The notes below the pieces were generated by a model. That model did not search any database. It worked only from the letters and a program-made list of their open reading frames with translations, and was not told where the DNA came from. A stretch of DNA of 64,000 nucleotides from a virus. Location: the IMG/VR virus record IMGVR_UViG_3300032213_002832, positions 64,001 to 128,000 of that record; one strand, given 5' to 3'. Of this stretch, positions 846 to 61,170 are shown one piece after another (within the stretch, counting starts at the first letter, position 1; each line of letters starts with the position of its first letter). The position numbers and the translations under genes were made by a program.

Positions 846-903
846 TTTATATAACCTATAAAATTATTTATTTATGTACAATATCCATATGATGTGGAGA
901 TGT

Positions 904-1581
904 ATGAAAAAGAAATGTCAATATATAGTTGTAGAAGGTTTGGATGGTGTTGGAAAAACAACACAAACTCAAAAATTAGTAGATTATCTACGTAGTCTAA
1001 ATTATAAGGTTTTACAAACAAAAGAACCAGGTTCTGAACATGCTCCACTAACAATGGAACTTCGTAATATAATGTTAAATGCTAAATATGATACCTCACT
1101 CACTGTCGCAGCAAGAGAACTCATTAGTCTTGCTATACGTTCCATCCATCTAGAAAAAGTTATTATACCAGCCCAATACGAGTACGACTTCATAATACAA
1201 GATCGTGGTATCCTATCTGGTCTCGCTTATGGTGAAGCATGTGGTAACGATTTAGGTTGGATAATGAATATTTCTAATACAATTGTTAAAAATGCGGATA
1301 AAACGCTAGATGGACAACCTACTTTGCTATATGATAAGGTAATAGTGTTATCTGGTAATGCTAAAAGTAGTTTACACAAAGCTGCCCAAGCTAAACAAGA
1401 GTTCACACACGGAGACGCAATAGAAAACAAAGGTGTATCCTTTATGGAATCTGTTGGTATAAATATGTTAAATTATTCTAATTTCTTTAATACTAGACAC
1501 ATTGATGTGGATGGTAAAAATATAGATGAAGTTTTTAGTGAAATCATTAATACTCTTAATTTAGAGGAAACCAATGTATGA
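904..1581 (+). CDS. tmk: Thymidylate kinase
   Basis: VEGLDGVGKTTQ P-loop, TKEPG and IIQDR motifs. Start moved to ATG 904, which has GGAG upstream. Confidence 0.9.
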   Translation: MKKKCQYIVVEGLDGVGKTTQTQKLVDYLRSLNYKVLQTKEPGSEHAPLTMELRNIMLNAKYDTSLTVAARELISLAIRSIHLEKVIIPAQYEYDFIIQDRGILSGLAYGEACGNDLGWIMNISNTIVKNADKTLDGQPTLLYDKVIVLSGNAKSSLHKAAQAKQEFTHGDAIENKGVSFMESVGINMLNYSNFFNTRHIDVDGKNIDEVFSEIINTLNLEETNV

Positions 1582-1655
1582 GTGAGCAAGAACAAGCGGT
1601 AGTTAAAGAAGAAAGTATGAGTGAGCAAGAACAAGCGGTAGTTAAAGAAGAAAGT
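1578..1655 (+). repeat. Exact 39-bp tandem duplication including the start codon (MSEQEQAVVKEES x2)
   Basis: atgagtgagcaagaacaagcggtagttaaagaagaaagt at 1578-1616 and 1617-1655. Confidence 0.97.
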
Positions 1656-3248
1656 GAAAAGAAACTTGCTCTTGTAGAGACATATGCTTCATTAGCAAAA
1701 ACTTTACGTCGTCATGTCAAAATGACTGATCTTATCGATGGTTCATCTTTTACTAAAGACATGGTCACTCATTACTTTAAGTCACTCTCTAGATTAGAAG
1801 AAGCCGCAAGAGAAGCTTTTCCAGAAAGTTTCTATGACGTTAAGATCAAAGACATAATTGGTCCTAAAAAATTAGCAGAATTACAAGATGCTGTAAAGAA
1901 ATACAAAAGATTTTTCATCACCACAGCTGTAGCTGGATGTCAGGCTGATACAAATTTTCTTAAAAGTATTCAAAGCTATTGTGCGAAAAATAATGCGGGA
2001 TTTCTCGTGTTAGTCGCATCAGATCCAGCTCATGTACATTCAAAGGGCGGATATGGAACTATTGATACTGACGTTATGGCTTATGGTGGTCAAGTAGTAT
2101 TGGCTGATACAGCGCTTAATAGTAATCTATATGTAAGCACACTAAAGCTAAGCGCCAAGCATATCGATCCTATTACCGGTTTATCACGAATTGGTCAACG
2201 TAATGGTAGTTTTATTTACGCATCACCTAAACAGAGATTAAAGGCTACTGCCGTATCTAATACCAAACTCCCACATATGCTAATGACTACTGGAGCAGTA
2301 ACAAGATCTAATTACTCTACAGATATCTATATGAGTGAACGTACAGCATATATCGCAGAAAATGACCATGTAATGGGTGGATTAATCATAGAGATTGAAG
2401 ATGATAAGATATATCATTTTAGACAAGTACAGGCAGATATTGATGGAGCATTTATTGATTTGGGTATTCAGTATAATGCTGACGAATCTGTAGAAAATAT
2501 AGCACCAGAAGCTTTCGTTTTAGGCGATTGGCATAGCGGCGAAACAGATCCTGTGGCTAAACAAGCGTGGGTTGAAGTTGTACAACAACTAGGTGTTAAG
2601 AAAGTTATATTACATGATACTTTTAATGGTCTCTCTATTAATCACCATGAAGATCATATGGGGATTTTGAAGGCACAGAGAGCTCATATGAATCAATTGG
2701 ATCTTGGATCTGAGTTGAAAGTATTGGCACAAGATTTAGATGATTGGGCTTTGCTTGTCGATTCAGTTGTAATTGTAAAATCAAATCATGACATCTTTCT
2801 AGAAAGATACCTCCAAGATGGCAAGTACGTCAAAGATCCCCATAACCACAAATTATCTCTTCATCTATCTTTAGCAATGCTAGATGGTAAAGATCCACTA
2901 CAATATGGCGTTGAAATGCAGGGATTGAAGAATCCAGATAAGATAGTATGGCTTAAGATGGATGATGATTATAAGATTGCTCATATCCAGTTAGGAGCAC
3001 ATGGTCATAAAGGGTCTAATGGAAGTAGGGGGTCTCTAAAAGCAATGGAGGCAGCTTATGGACAGTCTGTTTCTGGCCATGCTCATACACCAGAAATATT
3101 AAGACAAAGTTGGCAAACCGGTACAAGTAGTTATCTAAAACTATCTTATAATTCAGGCGCCAGCTCCTGGTTACATTCCAGTTGCCTGGTTTATTCCAAT
3201 GGCTCAAGACAGCTAATCAATGTTATGAACGGTAAATGGAAAGCCTAA
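1578..3248 (+). CDS. T5 A1-like metallophosphoesterase/nuclease
   Basis: GDWH, LHD, SNHD, HGHxGxNGSRGS, GHAHT and YNxGASSWxHxxxxxYxNGxRxLI motifs plus ~550 aa length, as recalled for the T5 A1 family. Confidence 0.7.
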   Translation: MSEQEQAVVKEESMSEQEQAVVKEESEKKLALVETYASLAKTLRRHVKMTDLIDGSSFTKDMVTHYFKSLSRLEEAAREAFPESFYDVKIKDIIGPKKLAELQDAVKKYKRFFITTAVAGCQADTNFLKSIQSYCAKNNAGFLVLVASDPAHVHSKGGYGTIDTDVMAYGGQVVLADTALNSNLYVSTLKLSAKHIDPITGLSRIGQRNGSFIYASPKQRLKATAVSNTKLPHMLMTTGAVTRSNYSTDIYMSERTAYIAENDHVMGGLIIEIEDDKIYHFRQVQADIDGAFIDLGIQYNADESVENIAPEAFVLGDWHSGETDPVAKQAWVEVVQQLGVKKVILHDTFNGLSINHHEDHMGILKAQRAHMNQLDLGSELKVLAQDLDDWALLVDSVVIVKSNHDIFLERYLQDGKYVKDPHNHKLSLHLSLAMLDGKDPLQYGVEMQGLKNPDKIVWLKMDDDYKIAHIQLGAHGHKGSNGSRGSLKAMEAAYGQSVSGHAHTPEILRQSWQTGTSSYLKLSYNSGASSWLHSSCLVYSNGSRQLINVMNGKWKA

Positions 3249-3650: not shown

Positions 3651-4703
3651 ATGAAGTTGGACAACTTTAAAGAACTTCTTGCTAAAAAAGCACAAGATGT
3701 TTCTATTAAAAATTTAATAAAGTTTATGAAAGATGATCTATTTGTAGATCTTGTTTATGAATCACTTGAGAAGATGGCGAGAGCCAGCCATAAAGGCGAT
3801 GCTGCTAATCTAGCTACTCGTGATTTTGGTACTGAAATGGATCCATCTCACGAGCCAAATATGATTCATGACGCATTATCACATCACGTGTCTAACTATA
3901 AGGCTGCACTTAATAGCGGAAATCATACCGTTGCTAATCAGCACGCTAAGCAAGTATTTAGAATAGTAGATATGGCTGATCAAGCACAAAAGCATTCTCA
4001 TGGTAAACTACAAGTCGAAGCAGTGTCTCCACATCCGTGGGAACGAAACAGTAAGACTAATAAGTATACTGCTGATGATGATAAGGTAAAAGATGGTTCA
4101 TACAAACCAGGTGAATTTAAAACAAAAACAAAAGGTTGGCGTTATAGAGGCAATGATTACGGGTTCCTACAACAGGCTCCTCATGAATCGTATTCAGGAG
4201 AGGTGCGTAGACATGGCCATAATAACGCATATCCTATGGAAGAGATAAAGGTTAATGGAAAACATGTTGATGTTGAAGATGTTAAGTCACCAACAACGTA
4301 TGCTGCTCATCCATTTGACTCGCATCCAATAATGCAGCACTTTGAAGAATCAGCTGGAAATAGAACTCCAGAAAGAGATAAGCAATATTTAGCAGAGCGT
4401 GACAAGTTTTCTGAGTCACCTGAGCTAGATAAATATTTCTCAAGCCAAGAAGAAAGACAAAACGCAGATCCAGAAAAAGCTCAACAACGCGGTAGTGTGA
4501 AGTCTTCACCTGTTCATAAGCAAGTTGAGCCACTAGATTTATCTAGCCAATCAAGTACAGAGCCAGGCCAACCAACAGATAAACCGGCTCCTAAGGCTAT
4601 AGTTAGAAAACCAAATCAAGCAAGTACATTATCAGACGAAGAAAGAGCAAAAGCAATATCTCTACTTCCACCTGACTTGCGTGCTAAATTAGGATTAGAA
4701 TAA
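3651..4703 (+). CDS. Hypothetical, probable internal head protein
   Basis: Strong RBS (AAGGAG); hydrophilic and His-rich; SLEK|M candidate cleavage motif. Confidence 0.6.
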   Translation: MKLDNFKELLAKKAQDVSIKNLIKFMKDDLFVDLVYESLEKMARASHKGDAANLATRDFGTEMDPSHEPNMIHDALSHHVSNYKAALNSGNHTVANQHAKQVFRIVDMADQAQKHSHGKLQVEAVSPHPWERNSKTNKYTADDDKVKDGSYKPGEFKTKTKGWRYRGNDYGFLQQAPHESYSGEVRRHGHNNAYPMEEIKVNGKHVDVEDVKSPTTYAAHPFDSHPIMQHFEESAGNRTPERDKQYLAERDKFSESPELDKYFSSQEERQNADPEKAQQRGSVKSSPVHKQVEPLDLSSQSSTEPGQPTDKPAPKAIVRKPNQASTLSDEERAKAISLLPPDLRAKLGLE

Positions 4704-5767
4704 TGAGCACATATGATATAAATTCCATATCGGCTACAATAGATTTTATTCGTCAAAATAAAGATGAGTTAATAAAAAATCTATCAGCATATGAACATTT
4801 GCTTCATACACTAAAGAAAGCAGCAGATGAGCAGAATAAGAAGCAATACTCTAAAGATTGGGAAGCACGCAAAGACTATTCTCCCCAAGAATCTGCTGCT
4901 ATAAAGAAGTACGTTGATGATGGGTATTCTCCAAGAGAAGCAGAGAGACTTGCTGGAGCGCATCAAGGGCCAAAGAATTATAAAGCCGCATTACAATCTG
5001 GCGTTAATCCATCTATGCCATCAGATAAAATGATGGGTAATTTAAAAGGCTTGGCTAAAGAGTGGCTTGACTCAAATCGCAGTCGTGATTTAGCCGAAGC
5101 AGATCCAGTGAAAAATCCGATGAAGCATGCTTCAGGTCAAATGGAACAAGCTCATCAAAAACACACTGGAAACTATCACGAAGCATACAGCGACTTTCTA
5201 TCATCCGATGATGTTAAAAATCTTTCTCCACGAGATAGGCATAAAGCAGTTTCAGAGTGGAAGAATAAGTGGAAACAAGATAATCCAGAGTATGAAGAAG
5301 GATTAACATCTAATGTTTCTCAAACACAATCTAAATTTGCCGATGCCGCTAAAAATATAGAACAAAAGAATCAAGAAGCAGCTCAGCATATAGCTTTAGG
5401 CGGTGCGGGTGACGTTCATGATATGACAGATCAAGAAGCTATGCAGCATCTTAGCGGTAGTCAAAATGATGAAGGTTATAGTGGCGGATCTATCATTAAA
5501 GATCCTGCTGCTGATTTTGCAGCCAAAAACCCACGTTACATAAAAATCTTGAATCAAGAACAAATGGATAGAGTGAAAAGATTAGATGCAGCTGCTACTG
5601 CTCAGGGTAAAACTAGAACTCCAGTACAGCCACAAACACAAGAACAGAGCACACCTGCTGCCCAACCAGAAGCCGCTCCGAAAAAAGCAGTTGTTGTTAG
5701 AGCTGGTCAAAGGGTTAAAAACACAGCCGCACCAATTAAAATCACTCGCGATGATGAAGAGGAATAA
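4703..5767 (+). CDS. Hypothetical, probable internal head protein
   Basis: Translationally coupled (TAATG); hydrophilic; ELIK|N and TLKK|A motifs. Confidence 0.6.
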   Translation: MSTYDINSISATIDFIRQNKDELIKNLSAYEHLLHTLKKAADEQNKKQYSKDWEARKDYSPQESAAIKKYVDDGYSPREAERLAGAHQGPKNYKAALQSGVNPSMPSDKMMGNLKGLAKEWLDSNRSRDLAEADPVKNPMKHASGQMEQAHQKHTGNYHEAYSDFLSSDDVKNLSPRDRHKAVSEWKNKWKQDNPEYEEGLTSNVSQTQSKFADAAKNIEQKNQEAAQHIALGGAGDVHDMTDQEAMQHLSGSQNDEGYSGGSIIKDPAADFAAKNPRYIKILNQEQMDRVKRLDAAATAQGKTRTPVQPQTQEQSTPAAQPEAAPKKAVVVRAGQRVKNTAAPIKITRDDEEE

Positions 5768-5770
5768 CAT

Positions 5771-6601
5771 ATGAGCATGAGTAGAACGCCAGAGTTGGAA
5801 ATGTTCCCATATCGCGCGACGGATCAATTTGAACCAACGTTTGAACGATATTGTCCACTTCCAACTGTATGTGATATGAAAGATAATAAGCTTTTTGGTA
5901 TACCATTAAGATCAGCATTGACTGGACAAGAATTAAAAGATAAAACTATTCAGTTCTATATGAATTCAGCAATATCAGAGATTGAGCATATGTTAGATCT
6001 CTATATTACACCAGTTAAATTCTTTGAAACACATGATTATGAGAGATCTAAGTTTACTTGGACTTACAACTACATGAAGTTAGATCATCCAAATATACTG
6101 AGCGTATCTAGAGTAGAGCTTAGTTTTTCCAATAACCCGCTAACACCTGGATTTGTACAGTTTCCATTAGAGTACGTGTATGTGCGTCCTCAAGAAGGCG
6201 TAATACAGCTAGTCCCAGCATACGGTACATCTATATCTGGTTTTCTACTATCTGCTTTTAGTGGTACACAGTTCCATGCCCTTCAATCAGCCGGCACGTC
6301 AAACTTTCCTGGTGGTATACGTGTAGAATATACTGCGGGATTTGCCGAAGATAAAGTACCTGTATCTATATGTGAACTTATTCAAACAATAGCAGCAATT
6401 AATATTTTGTCAGCATTAGGACCCATTTTGTTCCCTCAAACATCTGTCTCTATCTCTGTAGATGGTGCTTCGCAATCAACTGGCGGATTTGGTCCGAAAT
6501 ATCTTAACGATAGAATTGACCAGTTAAAAGAAGAGCGAGATAGAATGGTTGACGTCGTTAAGGGATACTATTGCCGTAGATTTCTCATAGATACTATTTA
6601 A
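5771..6601 (+). CDS. Head-tail adaptor/neck protein (Herelleviridae-like)
   Basis: IxFYMNSAISEIEHMLDLYI N-terminus, RVEYTAGF and SVSISVDGASQS pattern typical of Twort/SPO1-type neck proteins. Confidence 0.65.
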   Translation: MSMSRTPELEMFPYRATDQFEPTFERYCPLPTVCDMKDNKLFGIPLRSALTGQELKDKTIQFYMNSAISEIEHMLDLYITPVKFFETHDYERSKFTWTYNYMKLDHPNILSVSRVELSFSNNPLTPGFVQFPLEYVYVRPQEGVIQLVPAYGTSISGFLLSAFSGTQFHALQSAGTSNFPGGIRVEYTAGFAEDKVPVSICELIQTIAAINILSALGPILFPQTSVSISVDGASQSTGGFGPKYLNDRIDQLKEERDRMVDVVKGYYCRRFLIDTI

Positions 6602-20553: not shown

Positions 20554-21109
20554 TCTCTGCCCTCATTAATTGAACAACCAAATCCCACTCACCATGTAGG
20601 CAATCCTCTATCGCCTTACGGTAGGATTCTACCGGCTTTGGTAAGCCTACTTGTTCAATATACCTCATCCAAGAGGTTAATGAGCCATATACTACTAATG
20701 TATTATATATACTTATTGGAGATATAACCTGTGATATAAACCTATCACAATGATCCGATTGATATGCCTGAGGATTGATTAATAATGCCTCTGTCGTCAT
20801 TTCAATATCGGCCTGTATCGTTTTGCTAGTTTCCAAATCTTGTGCGCCTACGGCACCAATATCCGGTATATAAGCCTCTAATTTACCACTCGTCTTCTCT
20901 GATGAGCATCTTAAGCCAAACTCTGAAAAAGTAAGCTGTACAAATAAAGGACACCGGATACTAAGCATGACATGGGTCATATCGGTGATCCGGTTATCTA
21001 TTGTGCCTCTAAAGTGGGTTTTTGAGATCCGCTTAAAGTCTTCCCGCATAGGAGACCCACTAAGTAGAGCAACCCAACCTTTATCAAGTACTGGCGTCCT
21101 GTTCAGCAT
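20531..21109 (-). CDS. ThyX-fold protein lacking catalytic motifs
   Basis: PVLDKGWVAL, IRCPLFV and SQVISPISIYNTLVVYGSL align to ThyX, but HxSPFE and RHRx7S are absent. Confidence 0.6.
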   Translation of the reverse strand: MLNRTPVLDKGWVALLSGSPMREDFKRISKTHFRGTIDNRITDMTHVMLSIRCPLFVQLTFSEFGLRCSSEKTSGKLEAYIPDIGAVGAQDLETSKTIQADIEMTTEALLINPQAYQSDHCDRFISQVISPISIYNTLVVYGSLTSWMRYIEQVGLPKPVESYRKAIEDCLHGEWDLVVQLMRAENAKKKRR

Positions 21110-21506
21110 CTTCTTCCTTTTTAAGGTAATCTACAAAGCCAGCTTTACAAGTAGCTTTTTTATTCTCAAGCTCACCAGACAACATAGCTTCCATAAGTAT
21201 TTCTACATGCTTTGCTTCAATGTAGTCGATAGTACAGGCATCTAGAACTTGTGGAGGTTTGCCGAAAGTTTTAGAAGGTATCATGGCTTTAGCATGAAGC
21301 TGTTGATCAATATGGATATTAGCTACAGTTTCTACCATCTCTAAGAAGTCAAATGGCCCACAAACTGACTCTGAGATAAACTTAGGCTTGGCTCTATCAC
21401 CAGTAGATATAGCAACAAGAAAGGTTTTATCTTTGATTTCAGAGAGATCCATTTCACCCAATTCTCCGATCCAAGTTTCAGGATCTGCTGTTGGTAAATC
21501 ACTCAT
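21084..21506 (-). CDS. Hypothetical protein
   Basis: AAGGA RBS; downstream of a motif promoter. Confidence 0.65.
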   Translation of the reverse strand: MSDLPTADPETWIGELGEMDLSEIKDKTFLVAISTGDRAKPKFISESVCGPFDFLEMVETVANIHIDQQLHAKAMIPSKTFGKPPQVLDACTIDYIEAKHVEILMEAMLSGELENKKATCKAGFVDYLKKEEDAEQDAST

Positions 21507-21538: not shown

Positions 21539-21551
21539 TCGAATCGGTTTT
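21539..21551 (-). promoter_or_regulatory. Phage promoter motif AAAACCGATTCGA
   Basis: Intergenic, 33 nt upstream of ATG 21506. Confidence 0.7.
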
Positions 21552-23544: not shown

Positions 23545-23934
23545 TTACTCGTCTTCAAACCTATCACCAATTACTTCTTCGACTGGACTCATCCAGACCC
23601 CGTAGCCGTAACGCTTCTTGGTAAGCTTTTTCATAAGTTGACCAACTCTATTATATAAGTGCTGAAACACAAACGTAAACTCTTTAACACTCCTACCATC
23701 TGCTGTACGATACTCAGGATTATAGTTTTGTAAAGCTATTACCAGCTGATAATAAAGTTCTTGGCGCATATCAGCCATGGTCATGCCAGTATTACCTAAC
23801 GATATGTCTGAATCACCAGCAGACATATTAGCTTCTTTCCAATTCTTAACAATACTATCTCTTAAGTACTTATTAACTAATGGCATATACTTCTTAATAT
23901 CAGCGTTTGTAACTACCCTACGTTGCTTATTCAT
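23545..23934 (-). CDS. Miniature sigma70-family factor (region 2 only)
   Basis: IKKYMPLVNKY..DMRQE..LVIALQNYNP..FTFVFQHLYNRV matches the region 2.1-2.4 pattern; 129 aa with no region 4. Confidence 0.55.
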   Translation of the reverse strand: MNKQRRVVTNADIKKYMPLVNKYLRDSIVKNWKEANMSAGDSDISLGNTGMTMADMRQELYYQLVIALQNYNPEYRTADGRSVKEFTFVFQHLYNRVGQLMKKLTKKRYGYGVWMSPVEEVIGDRFEDE

Positions 23935-24473
23935 CTTCTTATCTTTCTTTTGGATGTTTCAGGTGATTCGTATCGGTTTTTAATTAAAAGCAATACTGAT
24001 CGACAAACCTTTAAATGATCTTCAGTCCATGCGGGTTTTGAAGTTGTGAACTTATCAAACTCGTATAAATCTTTCATAAACGCTTCATTACGTATAAAAC
24101 TATTATTCATAGTAGTATCTCGATACCACTTGTATAGTGATGTCAACTTGTTATTACTATGCCCACCCCTTTTATTTATGAAGTCAAGGACCTTATCTCG
24201 CATATTATGGTTGATGCGAGAATAGATTGAGTCAATACTATAGTTAACATCATACTTGTTTCTTTCTAGATTAAACTTTAAATCCGTACAAGATCTCACA
24301 GCCTCTATAACCGCATCATTTATACCATGTATTGCTTGTGAATTAAAGATGAATTGTTTATTGTATCTAAAGTAGATTTGATCTGCGCCATAAGTCAATA
24401 TTGGCGCTATTATAGGTTCTGGTAATTCAATAGCTGAAATCACTTTAGCTACGTCATCTCGTAAATGCTTCAT
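23931..24473 (-). CDS. Hypothetical protein
   Basis: GGAGG RBS, coupled. Confidence 0.65.
   Translation of the reverse strand: MKHLRDDVAKVISAIELPEPIIAPILTYGADQIYFRYNKQFIFNSQAIHGINDAVIEAVRSCTDLKFNLERNKYDVNYSIDSIYSRINHNMRDKVLDFINKRGGHSNNKLTSLYKWYRDTTMNNSFIRNEAFMKDLYEFDKFTTSKPAWTEDHLKVCRSVLLLIKNRYESPETSKRKIRR
23967..23981 (-). promoter_or_regulatory. Phage promoter motif AAAAACCGATACGAA
   Basis: Embedded in the 3' end of the upstream gene, 33 nt before the mini-sigma ATG. Confidence 0.7.
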
Positions 24474-25174
24474 ACAACCTCCTCCATAGAGTAAATTGGA
24501 TTCTTCTTATGTGTCATACACTTGAGTTTGCTTATGTTTGCTAGAGAGTAGGCATCTCCATTTTTAGCATAACTTTTTATCCACTTGAGAAGCTTGATAA
24601 TCAAATCTACATTTTTAATATTCCAAGTATTGTCATAAACTATACGACCAATATGCGTTTGAAGTACGCGTGCTCTTTTATTAATGGCTCGTGATCGACC
24701 GTTTTCTTTACATTCTAATAAATCCGATAATACACTAATATTGGCAGGTTTTGCGCTAGCTACATTGATACAAAGTTCGTGTCTGCTATTAAGATAAGGT
24801 AGTAACTCTTTGATTTCATCGTCACCCAATGATTCTTTCTCTTTCACTATACTAATGCGACCTACTATTCTTTTTTCAGCAACCTCTATTTTAGTACCTG
24901 GCTCAACTGTCATTTTAAAATAACGTTCAAACCCAATCAAGTCAAACAGCTCTGCTTGCTCTTTCGAGATACCAGCTTTATCCAACATCCTATTACAAAA
25001 ATACTCTAATCTCAAATGTCTATCATCAGCAATATATGGAACCAACTCTTCGTATTCAAGCACATACTCTGAAGGTAGTTTAACTAATGTATCACTTAAA
25101 GAAAAAGTATAAGGTTCAATTGCCTTATTCAACCAATCCATCTCTTCATATTGCTTATCATCTAAAAATGCCAT
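24470..25174 (-). CDS. Hypothetical protein
   Basis: AGGAG RBS. Confidence 0.65.
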   Translation of the reverse strand: MAFLDDKQYEEMDWLNKAIEPYTFSLSDTLVKLPSEYVLEYEELVPYIADDRHLRLEYFCNRMLDKAGISKEQAELFDLIGFERYFKMTVEPGTKIEVAEKRIVGRISIVKEKESLGDDEIKELLPYLNSRHELCINVASAKPANISVLSDLLECKENGRSRAINKRARVLQTHIGRIVYDNTWNIKNVDLIIKLLKWIKSYAKNGDAYSLANISKLKCMTHKKNPIYSMEEVV

Positions 25175-25182
25175 CTGTTCTC

Positions 25183-25707
25183 CTAATTGTCAAACCAAAA
25201 AACAACACGAACCTCTGGATTTATATCGGATCGGTTTAGAAGCATAGCCTCCGCAGCCTCATTATTAATCCACTCTTCACAGTAGTTGATGATAGTAGTA
25301 TAGTCTTCAGGGCGTTTCTTACCACCATGGTAGTCACTATATTCAAAAAAAGCTTGAGTAGACTTATTATCTGTAGGATAATACTCTGCTTCTATAAGAC
25401 ATTGCTTAAATTCTTCAAGAGAAAGCCAACTATGTGAATGTCCATCAACATACCTATCATATTCCCATCTCAATAACTCTGAAATATCTTCTGGTATCCC
25501 TTTAGGTGCGCGTATTACTGCTGTACCATAACGACGCACACTAGCAAGTATTCCAAATAAATCATAGTTCCTGCCTGTAGCATTCACTTGTTCTAAATAC
25601 TTATAATTATCGCCATCTTCACTATTTACTGTATGGTTTTCATCTAGTTGCCAAGGGTCTTCTTTTCTAAGGCGCTTTTCCAAAAATACATGAATATCAC
25701 ATCCCAC
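25183..25707 (-). CDS. Conserved phage protein (MGCDIH..RNYxLFxxLAxVR..VFWFDN family)
   Basis: Characteristic motifs of a widespread phage hypothetical family. Confidence 0.75.
   Translation of the reverse strand: MGCDIHVFLEKRLRKEDPWQLDENHTVNSEDGDNYKYLEQVNATGRNYDLFGILASVRRYGTAVIRAPKGIPEDISELLRWEYDRYVDGHSHSWLSLEEFKQCLIEAEYYPTDNKSTQAFFEYSDYHGGKKRPEDYTTIINYCEEWINNEAAEAMLLNRSDINPEVRVVFWFDN
25226..25237 (-). promoter_or_regulatory. Phage promoter motif AAACCGATCCGA
   Basis: 52 nt upstream of ATG 25174. Confidence 0.55.
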
Positions 25708-26017: not shown

Positions 26018-26540
26018 CCTTATTCTCCTCAGTATTTTTAACGACACGAAGAATTCGCGTCTTACTTGTAGGATTCGGATCGGTTTTTAATTCTGCTATT
26101 TTATCTTCAGGTAGTAGACCAGACTCAAGGTATGGGAGTAGTTGTGAAGCCTTCATGGTTTTAGCTTCTCCATCTATTCTTATGCTCATAGTAGGATCAG
26201 CTCCATCTTTAAGCATGCTTCTAAATAGATCTAGTTTCTCTTCTTCCATAGCTTTAATTTTAGATACTAAAGAGTTTTTATATCGGCCATGAGCAGCACT
26301 AGCATTAGGTTGGTCTAGAGCTCCAAAAATCTGTATTTGCTCATTAGATATTTCGTTAATACGTTCTATTTTGGCTTGTAGCATGCCATTTTTAACACCT
26401 TCATCATAGGCGTAATTAATGTTTTTAACTATGTTTCTCTCAACACCACTAAGTAGTAGGTTATTGAAGAAGTTACTTATATAATAACCAATTAATGAAC
26501 CAACAATCAATGCGCAAGTAATAGATAACAGTAATAACAT
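25980..26540 (-). CDS. Membrane-anchored hypothetical protein
   Basis: N-terminal TM helix. Confidence 0.65.
   Translation of the reverse strand: MLLLLSITCALIVGSLIGYYISNFFNNLLLSGVERNIVKNINYAYDEGVKNGMLQAKIERINEISNEQIQIFGALDQPNASAAHGRYKNSLVSKIKAMEEEKLDLFRSMLKDGADPTMSIRIDGEAKTMKASQLLPYLESGLLPEDKIAELKTDPNPTSKTRILRVVKNTEENKDVKSNAGDSAVH
26075..26088 (-). promoter_or_regulatory. Phage promoter motif AAAAACCGATCCGA
   Basis: 58 nt upstream of ATG 26017. Confidence 0.6.
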
Positions 26541-27414: not shown

Positions 27415-27933
27415 TTAATCCCAAAGTGTTCTCCAATATTTACCTAAGTGCTTGAATAAACGATCATATAGTTCATCTTCTTTTTTAGCACTTTTCTCAT
27501 ACATCTCTCTCGAATCGGTTTCAGCCAACTCATGTAGCTCTGGAGTGTTAGCCTTGCTATAGCTCACCTTTAGTGCTTTATATCTTCTCTTATCAGCCTT
27601 TTCAGCTATAATCTCTTCAAAGCTATACTTTGTATCACCCCATTTATCATTGAATTCTTTTTTATAGAGTTCAGTATCATATTGGCTTTTAATACGCTCA
27701 AAAAGATATACAGCATAATCTATACGTCTACAAATAGTATTATGGTCAGTAACTAGCTGATTTCTACGTATACACTTAGACATACGCTTAAGCTTGAATA
27801 TAATCATATCTTCAAGAAATCCATAGTCATAATCTCTATCCTCTTTAAGAAGAGGTAGCCAATCTTTGATGCGATTAGCTGTTTGTATTTTAACTTTTGT
27901 TTTTCTATGCTTCTGGCGTTTTCTACTGTTCAT
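27415..27933 (-). CDS. Conserved phage hypothetical protein
   Basis: DRDYDYGFL..FKLKRM..LFKHLGKYWRTLWD pattern. Confidence 0.7.
   Translation of the reverse strand: MNSRKRQKHRKTKVKIQTANRIKDWLPLLKEDRDYDYGFLEDMIIFKLKRMSKCIRRNQLVTDHNTICRRIDYAVYLFERIKSQYDTELYKKEFNDKWGDTKYSFEEIIAEKADKRRYKALKVSYSKANTPELHELAETDSREMYEKSAKKEDELYDRLFKHLGKYWRTLWD
27510..27521 (-). promoter_or_regulatory. Phage promoter motif AAACCGATTCGA
   Basis: Intragenic copy about 120 nt upstream of the tRNA. Confidence 0.45.
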
Positions 27934-33753: not shown

Positions 33754-33766
33754 TCGGATCGGTTTT
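33754..33766 (-). promoter_or_regulatory. Phage promoter motif AAAACCGATCCGA
   Basis: Intergenic, 27 nt upstream of ATG 33727. Confidence 0.75.
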
Positions 33767-33985: not shown

Positions 33986-35155
33986 TTATTTCTTCAATGC
34001 GCTGCTAAGTTTAATATGGTCACGTAGCAACTCAATACTCTTAGGGTTACGCTTAGTGAATTCACTAAAGAATTGAGAGATGTTACCACGTTGATTCTTC
34101 TGCGCACAACCTTTGATAAGGTTAATACCGTGATCTGCTGGGATGTTTTCCACAACTTCAACCATAGTCTTCTCATCAATAGTCTCTGGATCATGTGCCC
34201 AATCTTTACCGTCCTTCTTGCGTCCTTCGAACCAGCCACCGTATTTTTCAATAATACTATCAACAGTGAGTGAGATCTTGTCGCCAGCGTAGTTTGCGTT
34301 GGTCTTGTACATATCTTTTAGTTTCTGGATTGCTTTCTCTTTATCATTTAGGATGTCTTGTGCTGTTACAGGCGCGTCATCCCAGCAAGATTTCCAGTAC
34401 TCGTTACCTAAGTGCTTACCTAGTACTGATAGAGCTACAATGTAGTGAGAGCCTCTTTTTGAAGGGTGGTCAGATGCGCCACACATTTCAATAGCATTCA
34501 AGCGATCAAGGGTACGTGGACTAACATACTTGCCTTCTTTACCAACACCATCAGATTTCTTATAAACCCAGCTACCAGCTTTAACAAAGTTTATAACATT
34601 CCTATGCCAAAAAGTAGTTTCGATGTGAGTCATGAACGCTTGGTAGTTGAATTCAACTTCAAATTCTTCAAAACGATTTTTAAGAGCTGTATCCATGCTG
34701 TTGACGTCGTATTTTGAACCTTCAGGGTTTAGTGCTGCTGCGATAACCCAACCTTCAGGTAGTTCGTATGTTGGACCAACTTTTCTGTTCTTATCTGTGA
34801 GCTGCATTAAGCAGTTCTGAATCATTGTATTACCACGGTTTGGCTCTTCAAGTAGTAGAAGTCCGCGACCTTTGGTTGGCCAGAAGTGTGGAAGTGCGTG
34901 ACCCATTCGAGCATTACCTTCTTGATCTTTGTACTCGTAAGGATAGCCTACGAAGTCCGGCCCTTCATAATACGCAATACGTAAGTCAATAAAGCCAAAG
35001 TCAGGATCTGTTTCTCTCTGCTTGGCTACCCATTGCTGTATGATCTCGGATTTACCGATGCCGGCTTCGCCGACAAACATCGGGTTAAAAATCCGCTTAA
35101 TTTTACGAGCAGCAATTGCTAAATCAAGAATCTCTGTAATTTTGTCTGGGTTCAT
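33986..35155 (-). CDS. MoxR-like AAA+ ATPase
   Basis: GEAGIGKS Walker A, IDLR, LLLEEPNR Walker B, AALNP, MDTALKNRF. Confidence 0.88.
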   Translation of the reverse strand: MNPDKITEILDLAIAARKIKRIFNPMFVGEAGIGKSEIIQQWVAKQRETDPDFGFIDLRIAYYEGPDFVGYPYEYKDQEGNARMGHALPHFWPTKGRGLLLLEEPNRGNTMIQNCLMQLTDKNRKVGPTYELPEGWVIAAALNPEGSKYDVNSMDTALKNRFEEFEVEFNYQAFMTHIETTFWHRNVINFVKAGSWVYKKSDGVGKEGKYVSPRTLDRLNAIEMCGASDHPSKRGSHYIVALSVLGKHLGNEYWKSCWDDAPVTAQDILNDKEKAIQKLKDMYKTNANYAGDKISLTVDSIIEKYGGWFEGRKKDGKDWAHDPETIDEKTMVEVVENIPADHGINLIKGCAQKNQRGNISQFFSEFTKRNPKSIELLRDHIKLSSALKK

Positions 35156-35184
35156 AAAATCTCCTTAAATATTATATTCAACAT

Positions 35185-35198
35185 TCGAATCGGTTTTT
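35185..35198 (-). promoter_or_regulatory. Phage promoter motif AAAAACCGATTCGA
   Basis: Intergenic, 30 nt upstream of ATG 35155. Confidence 0.75.
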
Positions 35199-35200
35199 GA

Positions 35201-35746
35201 TCATATCTTGTCATGTTTACGCCAGTTATCTTCAGCCCACAAAGGTTGTAAGTTAGTATAGTGACATGCTTTAAGTAATTCTTCTCTATCGAGTATATTA
35301 AAAAAGCTTAATGGAATCTTGTGATCTAGTTCCCAACATTTAATCCCTACTTTTCTCCCATAGTTATCCCAAGTCATATCGGGTAACCATAATGACTCTA
35401 TATACGTCCTAAATTCTTTGATAGAGCAACCCAGATCTCTTACGGCACTTCCAACTTTAGTATTCTTTCTAAGAGCTGTGCTTAAGCGTTTTCTTAGATT
35501 TTGTCTTAACTTATATTCTGGATCTTCTTTCATCTTTTTAGCACGATATACTTTATCTCTTGCTATTTTTTCTTTCTTATATAATAAGTATCTGTTTTTA
35601 TTATAATTATTTAAATGTGTTGTATTGTTTTTTACCCAATTAGCAGTTGTGTTGTTTTTTGCGACAACCCTACAATTATCGCTACAAAATTTAGAATTAT
35701 GTACTTTAGGTTGATATTCTTCATTACATACAGCACAATTTTTCAT
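35201..35746 (-). CDS. HNH homing endonuclease-like
   Basis: CAVC..FCSDNC; LGCS..MTWDNYG..WELDHKIPLS..CHYTNLQPLWAEDN. Confidence 0.85.
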   Translation of the reverse strand: MKNCAVCNEEYQPKVHNSKFCSDNCRVVAKNNTTANWVKNNTTHLNNYNKNRYLLYKKEKIARDKVYRAKKMKEDPEYKLRQNLRKRLSTALRKNTKVGSAVRDLGCSIKEFRTYIESLWLPDMTWDNYGRKVGIKCWELDHKIPLSFFNILDREELLKACHYTNLQPLWAEDNWRKHDKI

Positions 35747-47059: not shown

Positions 47060-47842
47060 TTAATGTTTTGATAAAAAAGCTTCTAAAGCACTTAGAGGTA
47101 CTAGCATAGCAAAAGCTCTAAGCTGACCCTCTACTAACGACATTACACCAACTACTTCACCATCTTCATTAAGAGCAGGCGATCCACTCTGTCCCTTATC
47201 AGCTAACGCGTCTGTGAACATAAAAGGTGCCGTGAGAACACATATTTGTTCATTTTTTATTGTTCCATCTTTTAATTTTATCGAAACGGTTTCAATTTTA
47301 TACTTTTTAGCTACGCAGAATTTTAGATCTTCTAGTGGATATTGGTTGGATATAAGAAAACGCCCACGATAATGTCCACTTGAAGAAGACAATAGTGGGA
47401 CAATAGGATATCCTACTATGGTGACTTTTGAGTCAATATAAACATCTTCAGCTAACTTAATAGATTTAAAATGAAAATCTTTTGGTACCTCAACAAGACA
47501 TAAATCGTGTTCACTATCAAGTTTGAGTGGTTTTACTTTAAATCGTGAATATTTTCGTAAAATATTATTCTCTCTATGAGAGACAATAAAGAGTGGTAGT
47601 AGGTTGTTTATTTCGCACACATGAGCATTAGTAATAATGACCTGTTTACCACTTTTTGTATTAGCGAGAAAGCCAGTACCACTGGATCCAGTGGTAACAT
47701 CTTCTAAAGATACGATTGATTCAGCATTTTGGTGTAAAACATTCTCTGATTCATGAATAGTTTTCTCGTGATCAATAATAGAAAAACTAGAAACCATGCC
47801 GAGTATTACCAGTAAACCTATTATCATTCGATTGTCCTTCAT
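47060..47842 (-). CDS. Secreted/membrane-anchored trypsin-like serine protease
   Basis: Signal/TM, GTGF, TNAHVC, DLCL, GQSGSP. Confidence 0.88.
   Translation of the reverse strand: MKDNRMIIGLLVILGMVSSFSIIDHEKTIHESENVLHQNAESIVSLEDVTTGSSGTGFLANTKSGKQVIITNAHVCEINNLLPLFIVSHRENNILRKYSRFKVKPLKLDSEHDLCLVEVPKDFHFKSIKLAEDVYIDSKVTIVGYPIVPLLSSSSGHYRGRFLISNQYPLEDLKFCVAKKYKIETVSIKLKDGTIKNEQICVLTAPFMFTDALADKGQSGSPALNEDGEVVGVMSLVEGQLRAFAMLVPLSALEAFLSKH
47281..47292 (-). promoter_or_regulatory. Motif variant AAACCGTTTCGA
   Basis: Intragenic, about 230 nt upstream of the ligase genes; identical to the 40937 copy. Confidence 0.45.
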
Positions 47843-48070: not shown

Positions 48071-48088
48071 TATAATAAGTAGTATAAT
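48071..48088 (+). promoter_or_regulatory. Tandem TATAAT boxes upstream of FliA-like gene
   Basis: agTATAATa twice, 12 nt apart. Confidence 0.5.
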
Positions 48089-48115
48089 AGCTTATATATT
48101 AGTATTGAGGAACAA

Positions 48116-48520
48116 ATGAGTCTCTTAAAAGATCCGAAGAACAAGAAACTACTTGACGAATTTATGATCGAACACGCCCCACTTATCAATAAGCATATTA
48201 ACGTATTGAAATCACAGAATAAGATACCACCACACGTTCAAGAAGAAGACCTACATTTGGCTGGATTCAAGGGTTTAATGGAGGCTGTCCATAAATATGA
48301 TCCAGAGATTGCTAGTCGACTATCTTCGAAAGAGGGTGAAAACGTCTTTGCTAAATATGCCGACAAGAAAATTCGTGGACATATGCTAGATCATGTAGTC
48401 TCTACTGGTGAAATACCTAAAGTACACCAGAAGAGAGCCAAGAATATCAGCCTTCTTGAGAAGCAACCTGAGGCTACTACGACTGTGAATCTGGCGAATC
48501 CGGTGAAGAGCTCAGAATAG
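48116..48520 (+). CDS. Miniature FliA/sigma28-like factor (region 2 only)
   Basis: EHAPLINKH..IPPHVQEEDLHLAGFKGLMEAVHKYDP..FAKYADKKIRGHMLDHV..IPK matches FliA/WhiG region 2; 134 aa with regions 3 and 4 absent. Confidence 0.75.
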   Translation: MSLLKDPKNKKLLDEFMIEHAPLINKHINVLKSQNKIPPHVQEEDLHLAGFKGLMEAVHKYDPEIASRLSSKEGENVFAKYADKKIRGHMLDHVVSTGEIPKVHQKRAKNISLLEKQPEATTTVNLANPVKSSE

Positions 48521-48824
48521 TTTCTAATTGTTCATGGAACTCACCTTCATTCCAAACTTCACCACAAGCTGTAATCACCTCTTTAATAGCCTCATCCTGA
48601 ATTAGAGGGTGAGTGCTTGTATATAGAGCACCGCATAGAGCTACGGTGAGCTTATATTGATCTTCAGGACTATATGTATCGCCTTTGGCTTTATATTTAC
48701 CTAATTCTGCCTTCAACTTATCTGTCATCACTAAATCATTAGAAGTGCCAGCATAGTTACTGAAGAAATCTTCAATCATCTTAATGTCGTCATTATTAAT
48801 CACTACTTTATCCTTAATGTCCAT
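48477..48824 (-). CDS. Hypothetical protein
   Basis: GAGG RBS. Confidence 0.6.
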   Translation of the reverse strand: MDIKDKVVINNDDIKMIEDFFSNYAGTSNDLVMTDKLKAELGKYKAKGDTYSPEDQYKLTVALCGALYTSTHPLIQDEAIKEVITACGEVWNEGEFHEQLETILSSSPDSPDSQS

Positions 48825-48840: not shown

Positions 48841-49491
48841 TTATTTGGTTTTCTTTGTGGTTTTTTTAACCAACGTTTTTGTTTTACCCTTAATTCTATT
48901 CACCTTAGGTTTTAATTCTGGAATTTCATATGCCCATGATACAACCGGAATGATATTAGGGATGCCTATCACGTCAATAATATTGAATTTCTTGGCAGCT
49001 TCGGCAGACATCCATATCTCTTTAGATCCAACAGAATCTTTTATTAATTGTTGAAGTTTCTCATATGTAGTACCACAGTTGGCAGCAAGTAACCCCATAA
49101 AGCACCTATTCATTCTTAAAGCCTCATCACTATCTGCCTTAATAGAGTAAGCGTCACCCCAAGAACCAGTAGAGATATTGTGAATCATCACTCTACTCAA
49201 TGGACCACAGAACCTTGTGTCACCGTGCGACAAAAGGATTGCGCCGCAACTTATAGCTTTGCCCATACAAATAGTGATAAACCTATTCGGAACTTCATCC
49301 ATTGTCTCTATCATTTTAGCTAATGAATCTACAAAACCACCATAACTGTCTATATAGATTGGGATAACTATACTTGGGTCTTGTTTAGCGATGGATAAAA
49401 CCTGGTACCTAAATTCTTGTGCTGATTTCTCTGTAAACTGAGTGACCCAAATCTCTCCACTGTACGCACTTGCCGCCGCTTCATTAGCCAT
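48841..49491 (-). CDS. clpP: ClpP-like protease
   Basis: YIDSYGG, GKAISCGA (Ser), MIHN (His), EIWMSAEAA..IIDVI. Confidence 0.85.
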   Translation of the reverse strand: MANEAAASAYSGEIWVTQFTEKSAQEFRYQVLSIAKQDPSIVIPIYIDSYGGFVDSLAKMIETMDEVPNRFITICMGKAISCGAILLSHGDTRFCGPLSRVMIHNISTGSWGDAYSIKADSDEALRMNRCFMGLLAANCGTTYEKLQQLIKDSVGSKEIWMSAEAAKKFNIIDVIGIPNIIPVVSWAYEIPELKPKVNRIKGKTKTLVKKTTKKTK

Positions 49492-53131: not shown

Positions 53132-53596
53132 TTATATATTTACTATGTTACAATTTGCTGTAGTAAAATTGAAGGTTTCATGTATTACACCAGTGACCCT
53201 ATCTATATATCTAGCCTTCATAAGGTTGGTTTTTCTATCTAACATAATCACCCACTTACCACCATTGTTAAAAGGAGCATAAACGTCAGCATCCACTGTT
53301 ACTCGTGCTAATAAAGATCCAGCTTCATCTTTATAATACTCTTGTTTGTTATTTCGTGAGAAGTCATGTCGTGTAGCTACTTCGGCAGAGGCTTTGATAT
53401 TACCATTTTGAGTGATTTCGGCTTTGTATTTAAGTGAAACACCATTTAGTCTTATATAAGATCCACTGGAAACACCTTCGCATTGAATGGTAGATACCAC
53501 TCTATCTGTAATTGGTTGACGCTTGGTTGGTACTTGAATAGATGTTGGATTGTTACAACTGATTATCATTAACAATAAAGAAAAATACCTTACCAT
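53132..53596 (-). CDS. Lipoprotein, paralog of 53643-54170 head domain
   Basis: IISC lipobox; colinear similarity to its neighbour. Confidence 0.7.
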   Translation of the reverse strand: MVRYFSLLLMIISCNNPTSIQVPTKRQPITDRVVSTIQCEGVSSGSYIRLNGVSLKYKAEITQNGNIKASAEVATRHDFSRNNKQEYYKDEAGSLLARVTVDADVYAPFNNGGKWVIMLDRKTNLMKARYIDRVTGVIHETFNFTTANCNIVNI

Positions 53597-53627: not shown

Positions 53628-53640
53628 TCGTATCGGTTTT
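53628..53640 (-). promoter_or_regulatory. Phage promoter motif AAAACCGATACGA
   Basis: Intergenic, 32 nt upstream of ATG 53596. Confidence 0.75.
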
Positions 53641-53642
53641 AA

Positions 53643-54170
53643 TTAATAGTTATTAATTATACAGGCAGAAGCTGGATAAGTAAATGTTTGCGTTACCGTG
53701 TCGTGATAAACAACAGTAGCAATACCTGTATAGCGGGCCACACTAATTTCAAACCACCCATTATTATTATATGGAGAGTAATAATCTGCGCCAATTTCTA
53801 TAGCAGCTGTTGAAGCTCCAACTTGATTAGCAGAGTAAAATCGAGAACCAGATGTAGGGTCTACGCCTGGTATAGAAACTTCTGCTGAAGCCCAAACATC
53901 GCCAGCTTTAGTAACTGTAGCCCAATAAGATACCTTAATTCCATTTAGCGCATAAGACGATCCGCTTGTAGTTCCATTACAGTATAACGTAGCTACTACT
54001 TTATTATCAGTTCCCGATGAGCCCGTAGCTCCAGTAGGACCAGTGGCTCCAGTAGGGCCTGGTGAGCCTTTGTCTCCAGTAGGACCAGCTGGTCCAGTAC
54101 CACCATCTTTACCATCAGTACCACAACTCATTAAACTTAACGCCAACATCAGACCACTTAATACTTTCAT
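53643..54170 (-). CDS. Collagen-like lipoprotein
   Basis: LMSC lipobox, about 12 Gly-X-Y triplets, beta head domain. Confidence 0.8.
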   Translation of the reverse strand: MKVLSGLMLALSLMSCGTDGKDGGTGPAGPTGDKGSPGPTGATGPTGATGSSGTDNKVVATLYCNGTTSGSSYALNGIKVSYWATVTKAGDVWASAEVSIPGVDPTSGSRFYSANQVGASTAAIEIGADYYSPYNNNGWFEISVARYTGIATVVYHDTVTQTFTYPASACIINNY

Positions 54171-54198: not shown

Positions 54199-54212
54199 TC
54201 GTATCGGTTTTT
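54199..54212 (-). promoter_or_regulatory. Phage promoter motif AAAAACCGATACGA
   Basis: Intergenic, 29 nt upstream of ATG 54170. Confidence 0.75.
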
Positions 54213-59848: not shown

Positions 59849-60511
59849 CTAAATCTCTACAATTATAGGTAGATTTTTGATTTTATATTCAGCGGTACAC
59901 GAGCAAGCATTAATAAACTTAACACCGTTGTGTTCTTTTAAGCCATAAGATTCGTGTATATGGCCAAAAACGTGTAGCTTCAATTGTTTTAATTCTTGAA
60001 TTCTTTCAGCTAAATCTTGGCACCCAACAACAGAGCCATCTTGGCATTCATCTAGTATGTCAAAAGGTGGACCATGTGTTATGAGGACGTTCGTATCATC
60101 TGGAATTTGCTTCCATATATCTTTAAGATCATTACCTCTTTGTAAGTTGAAGGCCCAGTTGTAAAAGAAAGGTTGCCATGGACTTCCATATACTTTAATC
60201 TGTCTACCGTTTATAGGTAACACAATTTCTGTGTCTTGTAGGTATATGAAGCTATCGTTAATAGGACCGTTATATAGCCATTCTAAAGCTTGGGCATTAG
60301 TATCACCTTCAAATGTTTGATCATGATTCCCAGCGATAAGTAATTTATATTGAAAACCCTTTATCGAACTGAACCACTTACCAAAATCCCTTACTTCTTT
60401 CTCTCTACCTCTAAAGGTAAAGTCGCCAGCATGTACCAGGATGTCTCCTGGTGGGACGATAAGTGAATCATGGTATGTGTGGGTATCAGAAATCGATACT
60501 ACTTTAATCAT
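59849..60511 (-). CDS. Metallophosphoesterase (MPPED/239FB-like)
   Basis: ISDTH, HAGD, AGNHD, YGSPWQP, THGPP, FGHIHE. Confidence 0.9.
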   Translation of the reverse strand: MIKVVSISDTHTYHDSLIVPPGDILVHAGDFTFRGREKEVRDFGKWFSSIKGFQYKLLIAGNHDQTFEGDTNAQALEWLYNGPINDSFIYLQDTEIVLPINGRQIKVYGSPWQPFFYNWAFNLQRGNDLKDIWKQIPDDTNVLITHGPPFDILDECQDGSVVGCQDLAERIQELKQLKLHVFGHIHESYGLKEHNGVKFINACSCTAEYKIKNLPIIVEI

Positions 60512-60727
60512 TTAGTTTTCCATTATGAATTGGATCAAGTCATTTGTTGAGTTAAAATTAGCAACTTCTTTTAAGTATCCATATTGATTATAAGATCTAA
60601 GTCGTATACGATTACTAAAAACGTCTACTACATGGTCATCACCTAACCAAAGAGTATGCTCAAGATCTCTAATAGAGTACGGTATTCTAAGTTCATCAGC
60701 TTCACGCGCTATATCAAATATGTCCAT
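60512..60727 (-). CDS. Hypothetical protein
   Basis: AAGGA RBS. Confidence 0.55.
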   Translation of the reverse strand: MDIFDIAREADELRIPYSIRDLEHTLWLGDDHVVDVFSNRIRLRSYNQYGYLKEVANFNSTNDLIQFIMEN

Positions 60728-60735
60728 AAATATCC

Positions 60736-61170
60736 TTATTTACCTTTTAGTTTATCAAGTCTCTCTTTAAGCCTCTGTTGATTATCTAGCTCTTCTAAAC
60801 CTTGTATTAACGTATTTTTAATATGTAGATTAAACCAAACTAAACACAAACAAAAAGCGCACAATATGCTAAAAAATAATGCTAACAATATATTGTTATA
60901 AAAATATATGAACATAGCTAGATCAACTACTGCTAAAACTAAGTTAAGCTTAGCATGAAGGTCACATTTATTTATTACATTTTGTACTGCTTCTCTACCT
61001 TCATCACTATTAAATTCTTCAATATTCATTGACACATCCCCGTAATTATAATTATTAAACCCATACAAAAAACTATAAAAGCTACATACTCTAACTCTGG
61101 TTCTTGACTTTTGATAGCTGCTAAAATCATTACTAATACTCCAATTAACAATGACATTGTTAATCCTCAA
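60736..61170 (-). CDS. Membrane protein (true start probably the internal MNIEEF)
   Basis: Two TMs in the C-terminal half. Confidence 0.5.
   Translation of the reverse strand: MRINNVIVNWSISNDFSSYQKSRTRVRVCSFYSFLYGFNNYNYGDVSMNIEEFNSDEGREAVQNVINKCDLHAKLNLVLAVVDLAMFIYFYNNILLALFFSILCAFCLCLVWFNLHIKNTLIQGLEELDNQQRLKERLDKLKGK

Follow-up and report, generated by a model that had tools for sequence, protein, structure and literature searches.

A short FliA-like sigma-2 protein of an uncultured freshwater phage, its candidate CCGAT promoters and its relation to a head-module protein

The stretch of DNA analyzed here (64,000 nucleotides, called the window below) comprises bases 64001-128000 of a 167,515-bp IMG/VR virus record of an uncultured freshwater phage (G000), which carries terminal repeats and is rated complete; gene calls beyond the window are crude ORF calls. 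At window positions 48116-48520 of the + strand lies a gene with an ATG start, referred to here as the mini-sigma gene, whose 134-aa product contains regions 2.1-2.4 of a sigma factor and the first helix of region 3.0. Two tandem TATAAT boxes of the -10 type (48071-48076 and 48083-48088, +), each following AG and with no evident -35 element, are placed 45 and 33 nt 5' of the ATG and are the probable promoter of the gene; a (C/G)AGTATAAT box is kept ahead of the sigma copy in relatives. An earlier note on this DNA had described an isolated + strand gene with tandem TATAAT boxes and was right in this: the ORF was found at 48116-48520 and the boxes at 48071 and 48083, and the mini-sigma gene is the sole + strand gene among neighbors that are all on the - strand. 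Upstream of it are a DNA ligase, a trypsin-like protease and a 61-aa gene; downstream are a convergent gene of 115 aa (48477-48824, -) without assigned function, whose versions in relatives measure 104-117 aa, and a ClpP-like protease. Since the convergent gene shares the last 44 bases of the mini-sigma gene, there is no space downstream for sigma regions 3 and 4. The two proteases, the trypsin-like one (47060-47842, -) with an N-terminal hydrophobic segment and the ClpP-like one (48841-49491, -), always flank the sigma gene, and a second ClpP-like gene was seen in one contig of a relative (L007).

The mini-sigma gene sits in a minus-strand block, outside the head module, yet it is on the strand of the structural genes. 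The minus-strand block carries ligases, a polynucleotide kinase, a thymidylate-synthase-like enzyme, NAMPT, an ATPase and an array of small genes, and the plus-strand block the major head protein, the tail sheath and an adaptor-like gene.

The product of the mini-sigma gene matched the NCBIfam FliA model NF005413 (E 1.6e-13, profile positions 12-108 of 241) and the FliA_WhiG model TIGR02479 (E 1.6e-11), and WhiG and other sigma28 models matched as well. The scores fall far below the curated cut-offs (51 versus 201 bits for NF005413 and 44.4 versus 189.6 for TIGR02479), since the match covers no more than the first 40% of each model; the match to Pfam Sigma70_r2 was weak (11.6 against a cut-off of 24). 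A profile of the mini-sigma family found WhiG (3e-11), E. coli FliA (1.4e-10) and P. aeruginosa FliA (about 1e-10) in the PDB. The AF2 model (pLDDT 72) shows helices at residues 7-33, 43-59, 63-69, 77-97 and 102-109 and a tail that is disordered from residue 117. Its best structural match was P. aeruginosa sigma28 in the open complex (9wsm_F; Z 11.5, rmsd 1.7 A over 78 residues, 37% identity), followed by other sigma-2 domains. The likeness to FliA/WhiG region 2 reported in the earlier note is thus confirmed both by the NCBIfam match and by the structural comparison, and the sigma-2 fold, whose absence would have spoken against a sigma factor, is present in the model. The region 2.2 signature DLhxAGxxGLMxAVxKYD is kept, and a 9-residue insertion is found in the specificity loop (about residues 63-75).

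As to where the likeness ends, the alignments with FliA stop at FliA position 108-113 or thereabouts, and the model has one short helix (102-109) after the sigma-2 domain. The segment IPK..QKRAKN pairs with PRSVRRNAR of FliA, and this alignment implies that the mini-sigma contains the first helix of region 3.0. Regions 3.2 and 4 are absent across the ORF, which gave no Sigma70_r4 match, and a genome-wide search for region 4 found two other genes only, none of them near the mini-sigma gene. The description "region 2 only" therefore stands as far as regions 3.2 and 4 are concerned and needs to be extended by one helix. Judged from its sequence, the mini-sigma is a FliA/WhiG-descended sigma-2 domain with the first helix of region 3.0.

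A frameshift or an assembly error concealing a full-length FliA was also considered and rejected: homologues are uniformly short, the convergent gene covers the 3' end, and no region 3 or region 4 signal lies nearby. All 18 close homologues are 117-153 aa long, and in a profile search about 60 clusters of short relatives (105-200 aa, E < 1e-14) came before full-length FliA appeared at about 1e-12. The order ligase, trypsin-like protease, sigma gene on the opposite strand, small gene and ClpP-like protease is the same down to 48% identity; both the contigs with 48-88% identical copies and one more distant contig leave the position and the opposite strand of the sigma gene unchanged. With about 60 clusters of equally short relatives and a conserved synteny, the short form is natural and not a frameshifted one. 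No close DNA relatives were found among GenBank phages, and the GenBank phage matches at the protein level were three fecal "Bacteriophage sp." fragments only, with about 30% identity. In PHROG the mini-sigma matched generic sigma families (phrog_36098 and phrog_351), and in the literature that we searched we came across no phage sigma-2 stub of FliA descent. The earlier note had also pointed to possible processing flanks. Both MSLLK-D and SLLEK-Q are present. The family keeps the N-terminal LLKDP, also at the fusion joints described below; the C-terminal LEKQ flank is not conserved, relatives having SLLP, and it was discarded as a conserved protease site.

The sequence AACCGAWHCGA occurs 24 times on the - strand and not once on the + strand of the whole genome, and the reversed pattern used as a control occurs once in each orientation. 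Nine sites are in the window, and most of the others belong to a series of small genes, each bounded by a hairpin terminator, at 129-144 kb of the genome. All nine are on the - strand. Those with the sequence AACCGATTCGA are at 21539-21549 (42 nt before the start of gene 21084-21506), at 27510-27520 (within a called ORF) and at 35185-35195 (39 nt before the ATPase gene 33986-35155). Sites with the sequence AACCGATACGA precede gene 23545-23934 (23968-23978), gene 53132-53596 (53628-53638, at 41 nt) and gene 53643-54170 (54199-54209, at 38 nt). The form AACCGATCCGA is found upstream of gene 24470-25174 (25226-25236), within a called ORF (26075-26085) and at 33754-33764, followed by a Shine-Dalgarno (SD) sequence and an ATG about 43 nt downstream. 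The promoter sequence of this CCGAT class, the candidate target of the mini-sigma, can be written AAACCGATTCGA.

Two features of these sites bear on their nature. No base is conserved upstream of the motif, a -35 element being absent, and the motif lies 10-20 nt 5' of SD boxes. In most sites of three genomes the SD sequence starts at motif index 20-31, and in 22 of 45 at index 30 or less. An SD sequence so close to the motif places the start of transcription within about 10 nt after the 10-mer, and with such a start the motif has the geometry of a -10 rather than of a -35 element. The motif is followed at 8 nt by an A/T-rich TAtaa element, and TTAACC or TAAACC occurs at a -35-like spacing, so that some promoters of the small genes could be of the sigma70 type. 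Reading the motif itself as a sigma70-type -35 with TAtaa as the -10 was rejected for about half of the sites, where the SD sequence would lie at or before the transcription start; it is possible for a few sites of the small-gene array. A search with PF00940 for a single-subunit RNA polymerase that might read the motif gave no match, and the control genomes likewise gave none. On both strands there is a second promoter-like class, (G)GTATAAT or TAGAAT with no clear -35, which is about 14-fold enriched upstream of genes; examples in the window are at 12344, 16193, 27217, 37414, 40926 and 50619, and the class is enriched in four of four relatives.

Upstream of the CCGAT motif and just after the terminators, the exact 14-mer TGACACTGCTACGC was noticed at genome positions 129859-143223 (-). 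It is present too in four complete IMG/VR relatives (G002-G005) and in 25 multi-copy IMG/VR loci, and it is conserved letter for letter in spite of major head proteins that are 66-70% identical and a GC content ranging from 35% to 49%. Measured from the 14-mer, the next CCGA downstream is most often 14-18 nt away and less often 6-8, about 25 or about 36 nt, and the 14-mer may be a -35-like or activator site. Two further sigma-related genes were observed. The head module contains, at genome positions 60343-60783 (3.2 kb before the window), the gene of a 146-aa protein with a Cys-rich N-terminus and a sigma-4.2-like HTH (Sigma70_r4, E 2.4e-4); this protein (L002:1234-1674) is conserved at 52-65% identity in all five genomes and is a candidate for the second half of a split sigma or for the reader of TGACACTGCTACGC. 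At 34734-35420 of the genome (L005:1375-2061) there is an RpoD/RpoS-like sigma of 228 aa that stops just before region 4.2 (RpoD_Cterm 2-191 of 238), and it is found only in the two genomes with a free mini-sigma (G000 and G002), being absent from the three with a fused form.

An arrangement similar to the MotA box of T4 has to be weighed here, in which another phage DNA-binding protein, for example one with a sigma-4.2-like HTH, binds the motif, host sigma70 uses TAtaa, and the mini-sigma has its target elsewhere. The TAtaa element 8 nt after the motif and the conservation of the sigma-4.2-like HTH protein in five of five genomes are in line with it. However, 22 of the 45 sites would then have an SD sequence beginning at or before the transcript start, and the start codons of the group-B sites lie 20-22 nt away from the motif, which makes this arrangement hardly credible.

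For the mini-sigma as the reader of the motif, the open complex of sigma28 offers a direct comparison. In it GCCGATAA occupies positions -15 to -8, A-11 is flipped onto Y76, R80 is at G-12, D87 at C-13/G-12 and R97 at the -15/-14 pairs, and R101, R104, R32 and R40 touch the DNA backbone (PMC12784957). In a pairwise alignment Y76, R80, R82, D87, R97, R101, R104, R32 and R40 of sigma28 correspond to Y81, K85, R87, D92, K102, K106, K109, K26 and K36 of the mini-sigma, and the aligned -10 contact positions are mostly invariant or nearly so across the mini-sigma family; D93, H100 and S72 of sigma28 are not kept. The phage motif and the sigma28 box have the same CCGA core, and the 9-residue insertion in the specificity loop may, as we infer, read the additional WHCGA.

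Whether protein and motif go together was examined in the four complete relatives, which had been reached through the exactly conserved 14-mer and whose major head proteins are 66-70% identical to that of G000. A protein-pattern search of IMG/VR yielded one 13-kb fragment only, which lacks the motif, and G006, a genome with a single chance match to the 14-mer, has neither sigma nor motif and served as an unrelated negative example. G000 has its free 134-aa sigma on the + strand, 0 forward and 25 reverse sites of the AACCGAWHCGA type, and 1 forward and 0 reverse of YCCGATNYTA. G002, with a free sigma of 123 aa on the - strand, has 19 forward and 0 reverse sites of the first type and 1 and 1 of the second. 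In G005 the sigma is contained within a 499-aa protein (-), and the counts are 19/0 and 0/1. A divergent sigma is found within a 521-aa protein (+) of G004, where they are 0/1 and 1/8, and within a 550-aa protein (-) of G003, where they are 0/0 and 7/0. Thus all five complete genomes, which belong to one clade, have both a sigma-2 domain and a CCGAT motif, the latter on the strand opposite to the sigma gene; more distant contigs show ACCGAT(T/A)CGA on the expected strand. The divergent sigmas of G003 and G004 are changed at the contact positions (Y81H, D92T and K102Q/H), and their motif, YCCGATNYTA, keeps the CCGAT core with altered flanks. This co-occurrence and two-state co-variation suggest a link between protein and motif, the co-variation being between two sigma subtypes only, which also lie apart in phylogenetic distance. 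At four variant-motif sites of G004 (109064, 114022, 162116 and 168162, -) the start codon is 16-22 nt from the first motif base and an SD sequence is absent; in the analysis of SD spacing four G004 sites without an SD had their ATG at motif index 20-22. The mRNAs of these sites would be leaderless, or nearly so, if their transcription began directly after the motif.

The earlier note had proposed the protein as a candidate reader of the CCGAT promoters and had asked whether related phages carry both gene and motif. Both are present in the five complete genomes, and the proposal gains from the conserved contact residues, the -10-only geometry and the co-occurrence and co-variation, the mini-sigma still being a candidate reader. 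Two other explanations were weighed against this comparison. The host FliA holoenzyme could read the CCGAT promoters, the stub helping indirectly, for instance by soaking up FlgM, and the core of the motif is indeed that of the sigma28 -10 element, GCCGATAA (PMC12784957). Yet the sites have no -35 of the TAAA type and no conserved base upstream, the flanks of the motif change from one phage subtype to the other together with the phage sigma, and FlgM binds all three sigma28 domains (PMC12784957), so that a sigma-2 stub would be a poor FlgM sponge; we regard a host FliA reader as very improbable. The second is a decoy or competitor, a stub that blocks the beta' clamp helices from host sigmas, or from host FliA only, while something else reads the motif. 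Region 2.2 is intact and regions 3.2 and 4, needed by most sigmas, are missing, as such a blocker would allow. But the DNA-contact residues of regions 2.3, 2.4 and 3.0, needless for blocking the core, are conserved and vary with the motif in the divergent subtype, and T4 gp55 shows that a sigma-2-only factor can initiate (PMC2988020). Because those residues are conserved, the decoy that shuts down flagellar genes, the third possibility of the earlier note, is disfavored, and a decoy of any kind appears improbable. The mini-sigma is rather likely to be a minimal sigma for the 25 or so -35-less CCGAT promoters of the phage.

A second gene enters the picture through the relatives of the mini-sigma. 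In the head module of the window, between the major head protein (which ends at 792) and a 276-aa head-tail adaptor-like gene of the Herelleviridae/Mx1 type (5771-6601), a gene at 4703-5767 (+) encodes a charged, poorly folding protein of 354 aa, here called the partner. Seven long representatives (401-549 aa) carry the sigma-2 domain and have no Pfam domain other than Sigma70_r2; the partner family was recognized in all seven (E 1e-27 to 4e-94). A sigma-2 domain is thus fused in relatives to a head-module protein, which is new here. Three architectures occur, with the sigma-2 domain C-terminal to the partner, inserted in its middle or placed directly ahead of its C-terminal tail. The product of 4703-5767 is 37% identical to P0027 (1e-49), and the gene that follows P0027 is 54% identical to 5771-6601. 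The fused copy lies inside the structural module in G003, G004, G005, L014 and L015. In G003, G004 and G005 the fused gene is the only sigma-2 copy and is translationally coupled to its neighbors, with no internal Met at the joint. There are 49 closer homologues of the partner without a sigma domain. Neither PHROG nor Pfam has a family for the partner, the Atlas offers no usable fold, and no match to it was found among 50,697 phage records.

Several observations were made around this part of the head module. Window positions 874-3248 (+), downstream of the major head protein and upstream of the partner, encode a thymidylate-kinase-like P-loop protein and a 556-aa "DNA transfer protein" of PHROG 1745, and L014 and L015 show the same gene order around the major head protein, the P-loop protein, the PHROG 1745 protein and the partner. 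The mobile elements noticed in relatives (L007:14330-17233, L013:13631-16540, L013:4307-6568 and L017:11080-11619) are inteins in ribonucleotide reductase and RNA ligase and an HNH endonuclease gene inserted between the partner and adaptor genes; the 179-aa gene found at this place in L017, considered as a possible sigma, is such an HNH endonuclease.

Complex prediction for the split pair, the mini-sigma and the 354-aa partner of this phage, gave an ipSAE of 0.66 against 0.08 for the best control; among reference pairs, 58 of 80 solved complexes attained the mark, as did 2 of 110 mismatched pairs. At least 59% of the contacts are shared between runs, and the pLDDT of the partner is at least 68. 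The predicted interface joins residues 78-125 of the partner, its most conserved block, to residues 12-26 and 47-63 of the sigma, which by homology are regions 2.1 and 2.2, the face that meets the beta' clamp helices. The model supports binding between the split mini-sigma and the partner. Since the two form a single polypeptide in relatives and the predicted contact of the split pair is made through the beta' face, the partner can be seen as a silencer or carrier of the sigma.

The mechanism that we propose runs as follows. Through region 2.2 the mini-sigma would bind the beta' clamp helices in the core enzyme of the host RNA polymerase, and it would recognize the -35-less (A)AACCGAWHCGA much as GCCGATAA is recognized by sigma28. 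The CCGA bases would lie at -14 to -11; Tyr81 would receive the flipped A-11, Lys85 and Asp92 would contact G-12/C-13, and Lys102 would contact the -15/-14 pairs. The start of transcription would be found about 5 nt past the 10-mer. With regions 3.2 and 4 missing, initiation may need an additional co-factor. The CCGAT promoters would drive the 65-kb minus-strand block with its genes for nucleotide metabolism and repair and its array of small genes bounded by terminators. Late in infection the head-module protein would keep the sigma silent and would probably carry it into the capsid, from which it would enter the next cell with the DNA. A fused sigma made late could hardly serve the early and middle genes of the same cycle, and packaging with delivery is therefore the simplest reading of the fused forms. 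That the sigma is packed in the capsid, ejected with the DNA and redirects host RNA polymerase to the CCGAT promoters before any phage gene is expressed is nonetheless advanced tentatively, as a possibility that we put at somewhat less than an even chance. The free mini-sigma gene with its TATAAT promoter could also be read early by the host holoenzyme. The location of the gene outside the head module, its own promoter that a host holoenzyme could read early, the failure to find a protease site and the lack of a known family for the partner speak against packaging. The virion-delivered sigma suggested as a possibility in the earlier note is plausible and gains indirect support from the fusion of the domain to a head-module protein in relatives and from the predicted binding of the split pair.

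The main competitor of packaging is a switch from early to middle transcription within one cycle, where the host holoenzyme reads the TATAAT boxes, the mini-sigma turns on the CCGAT regulon and the head-module protein acts as a late anti-sigma. The tandem TATAAT promoter of the mini-sigma, conserved in relatives, and the position of the gene among those that it would activate agree with such a switch, as does a predicted partner interface that covers the core-binding face in the fashion of an anti-sigma. The SPO1-type cascade is a precedent, the adaptor-like neighbor being of the Herelleviridae/Mx1-like kind. In G003, G004 and G005, however, the sole sigma-2 copy would be a late product joined to its own inhibitor, an arrangement hard to understand in an activator of middle genes, and we consider the switch unlikely.

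Phages are known to take over host transcription by full-length phage sigmas, by gp55/gp33, by AsiA/MotA appropriators and by packaged polymerases. Minimal phage sigmas and split sigmas are already known (PMC2988020; PMC7824862). T4 gp55 is a region-2-like sigma that binds the beta' coiled coil of the core and uses a short -10-only promoter, the function of sigma-4 being absent or supplied in trans (PMC2988020). Like gp55, the mini-sigma is limited to sigma-2 and has a -35-less promoter. It differs from gp55 in that no gp55 ancestry is detectable in it, its PHROG matches being to generic sigma families, and in that it is clearly FliA/WhiG-like; its promoter is AAACCGAWHCGA and not the T4 late box, no gp33 or clamp-binding tail was identified for it, its presumed regulon is the non-structural strand block and not the late genes, and it is tied by fusion and predicted binding to a head-module protein. 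With bacterial FliA/sigma28 (PDB 9WSM, 6PMI and 1RP3) the mini-sigma shares the sigma-2 fold, the -10 contact residues and the CCGA(T) promoter core, but it has half the length and an additional 9-residue loop insertion, and it lacks the sigma-3 body, the sigma finger and sigma-4, so that it would not read a -35 and would probably bind FlgM little.

The cascade of SPO1 gp28 and gp33/gp34 (Herelleviridae) is similar in that a large myovirus with a related head-tail adaptor re-programs host RNA polymerase with sigmas of its own. The SPO1 sigmas are not known to be FliA-like stubs or to be linked to head proteins. As in sigma/anti-sigma pairs and cis-inhibited sigmas, the partner is predicted to lie over the core-binding face of sigma-2, and the pair exists both split and fused; in contrast to such pairs, the partner matches none of the known folds or families of anti-sigmas, most of it is unstructured, and its gene stands between those of the major head protein and the adaptor. 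Transcription proteins carried in the virion include the N4 virion RNA polymerase and T4 Alt. Phage polyvalent proteins have been surveyed as injected proteins, packaged polymerases and enzymes being known (PMC5512222). If packaging is true, the mini-sigma would resemble all of these as a factor made late, packed in the head and injected for the next cycle, but N4 virion RNA polymerase, T4 Alt and the polyvalent proteins are polymerases or enzymes. The survey of polyvalent proteins (PMC5512222) nowhere mentions sigma domains (0 occurrences of "sigma"), and our literature search found no description of a capsid-carried sigma factor.

The mini-sigma would be a second, independently evolved sigma-2-only factor, with a clear cellular ancestor in FliA and a defined promoter class. 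The family, so far unnamed, is found widely in freshwater metagenomes, where it makes up about 60 clusters at 50% identity. The natural variants, in which protein and motif change together, offer a small model in which to study what minimal part of a sigma is needed to open a promoter and how -10 specificity is re-written, and the repeated fusion to the head module raises the possibility of a sigma factor carried in the capsid.
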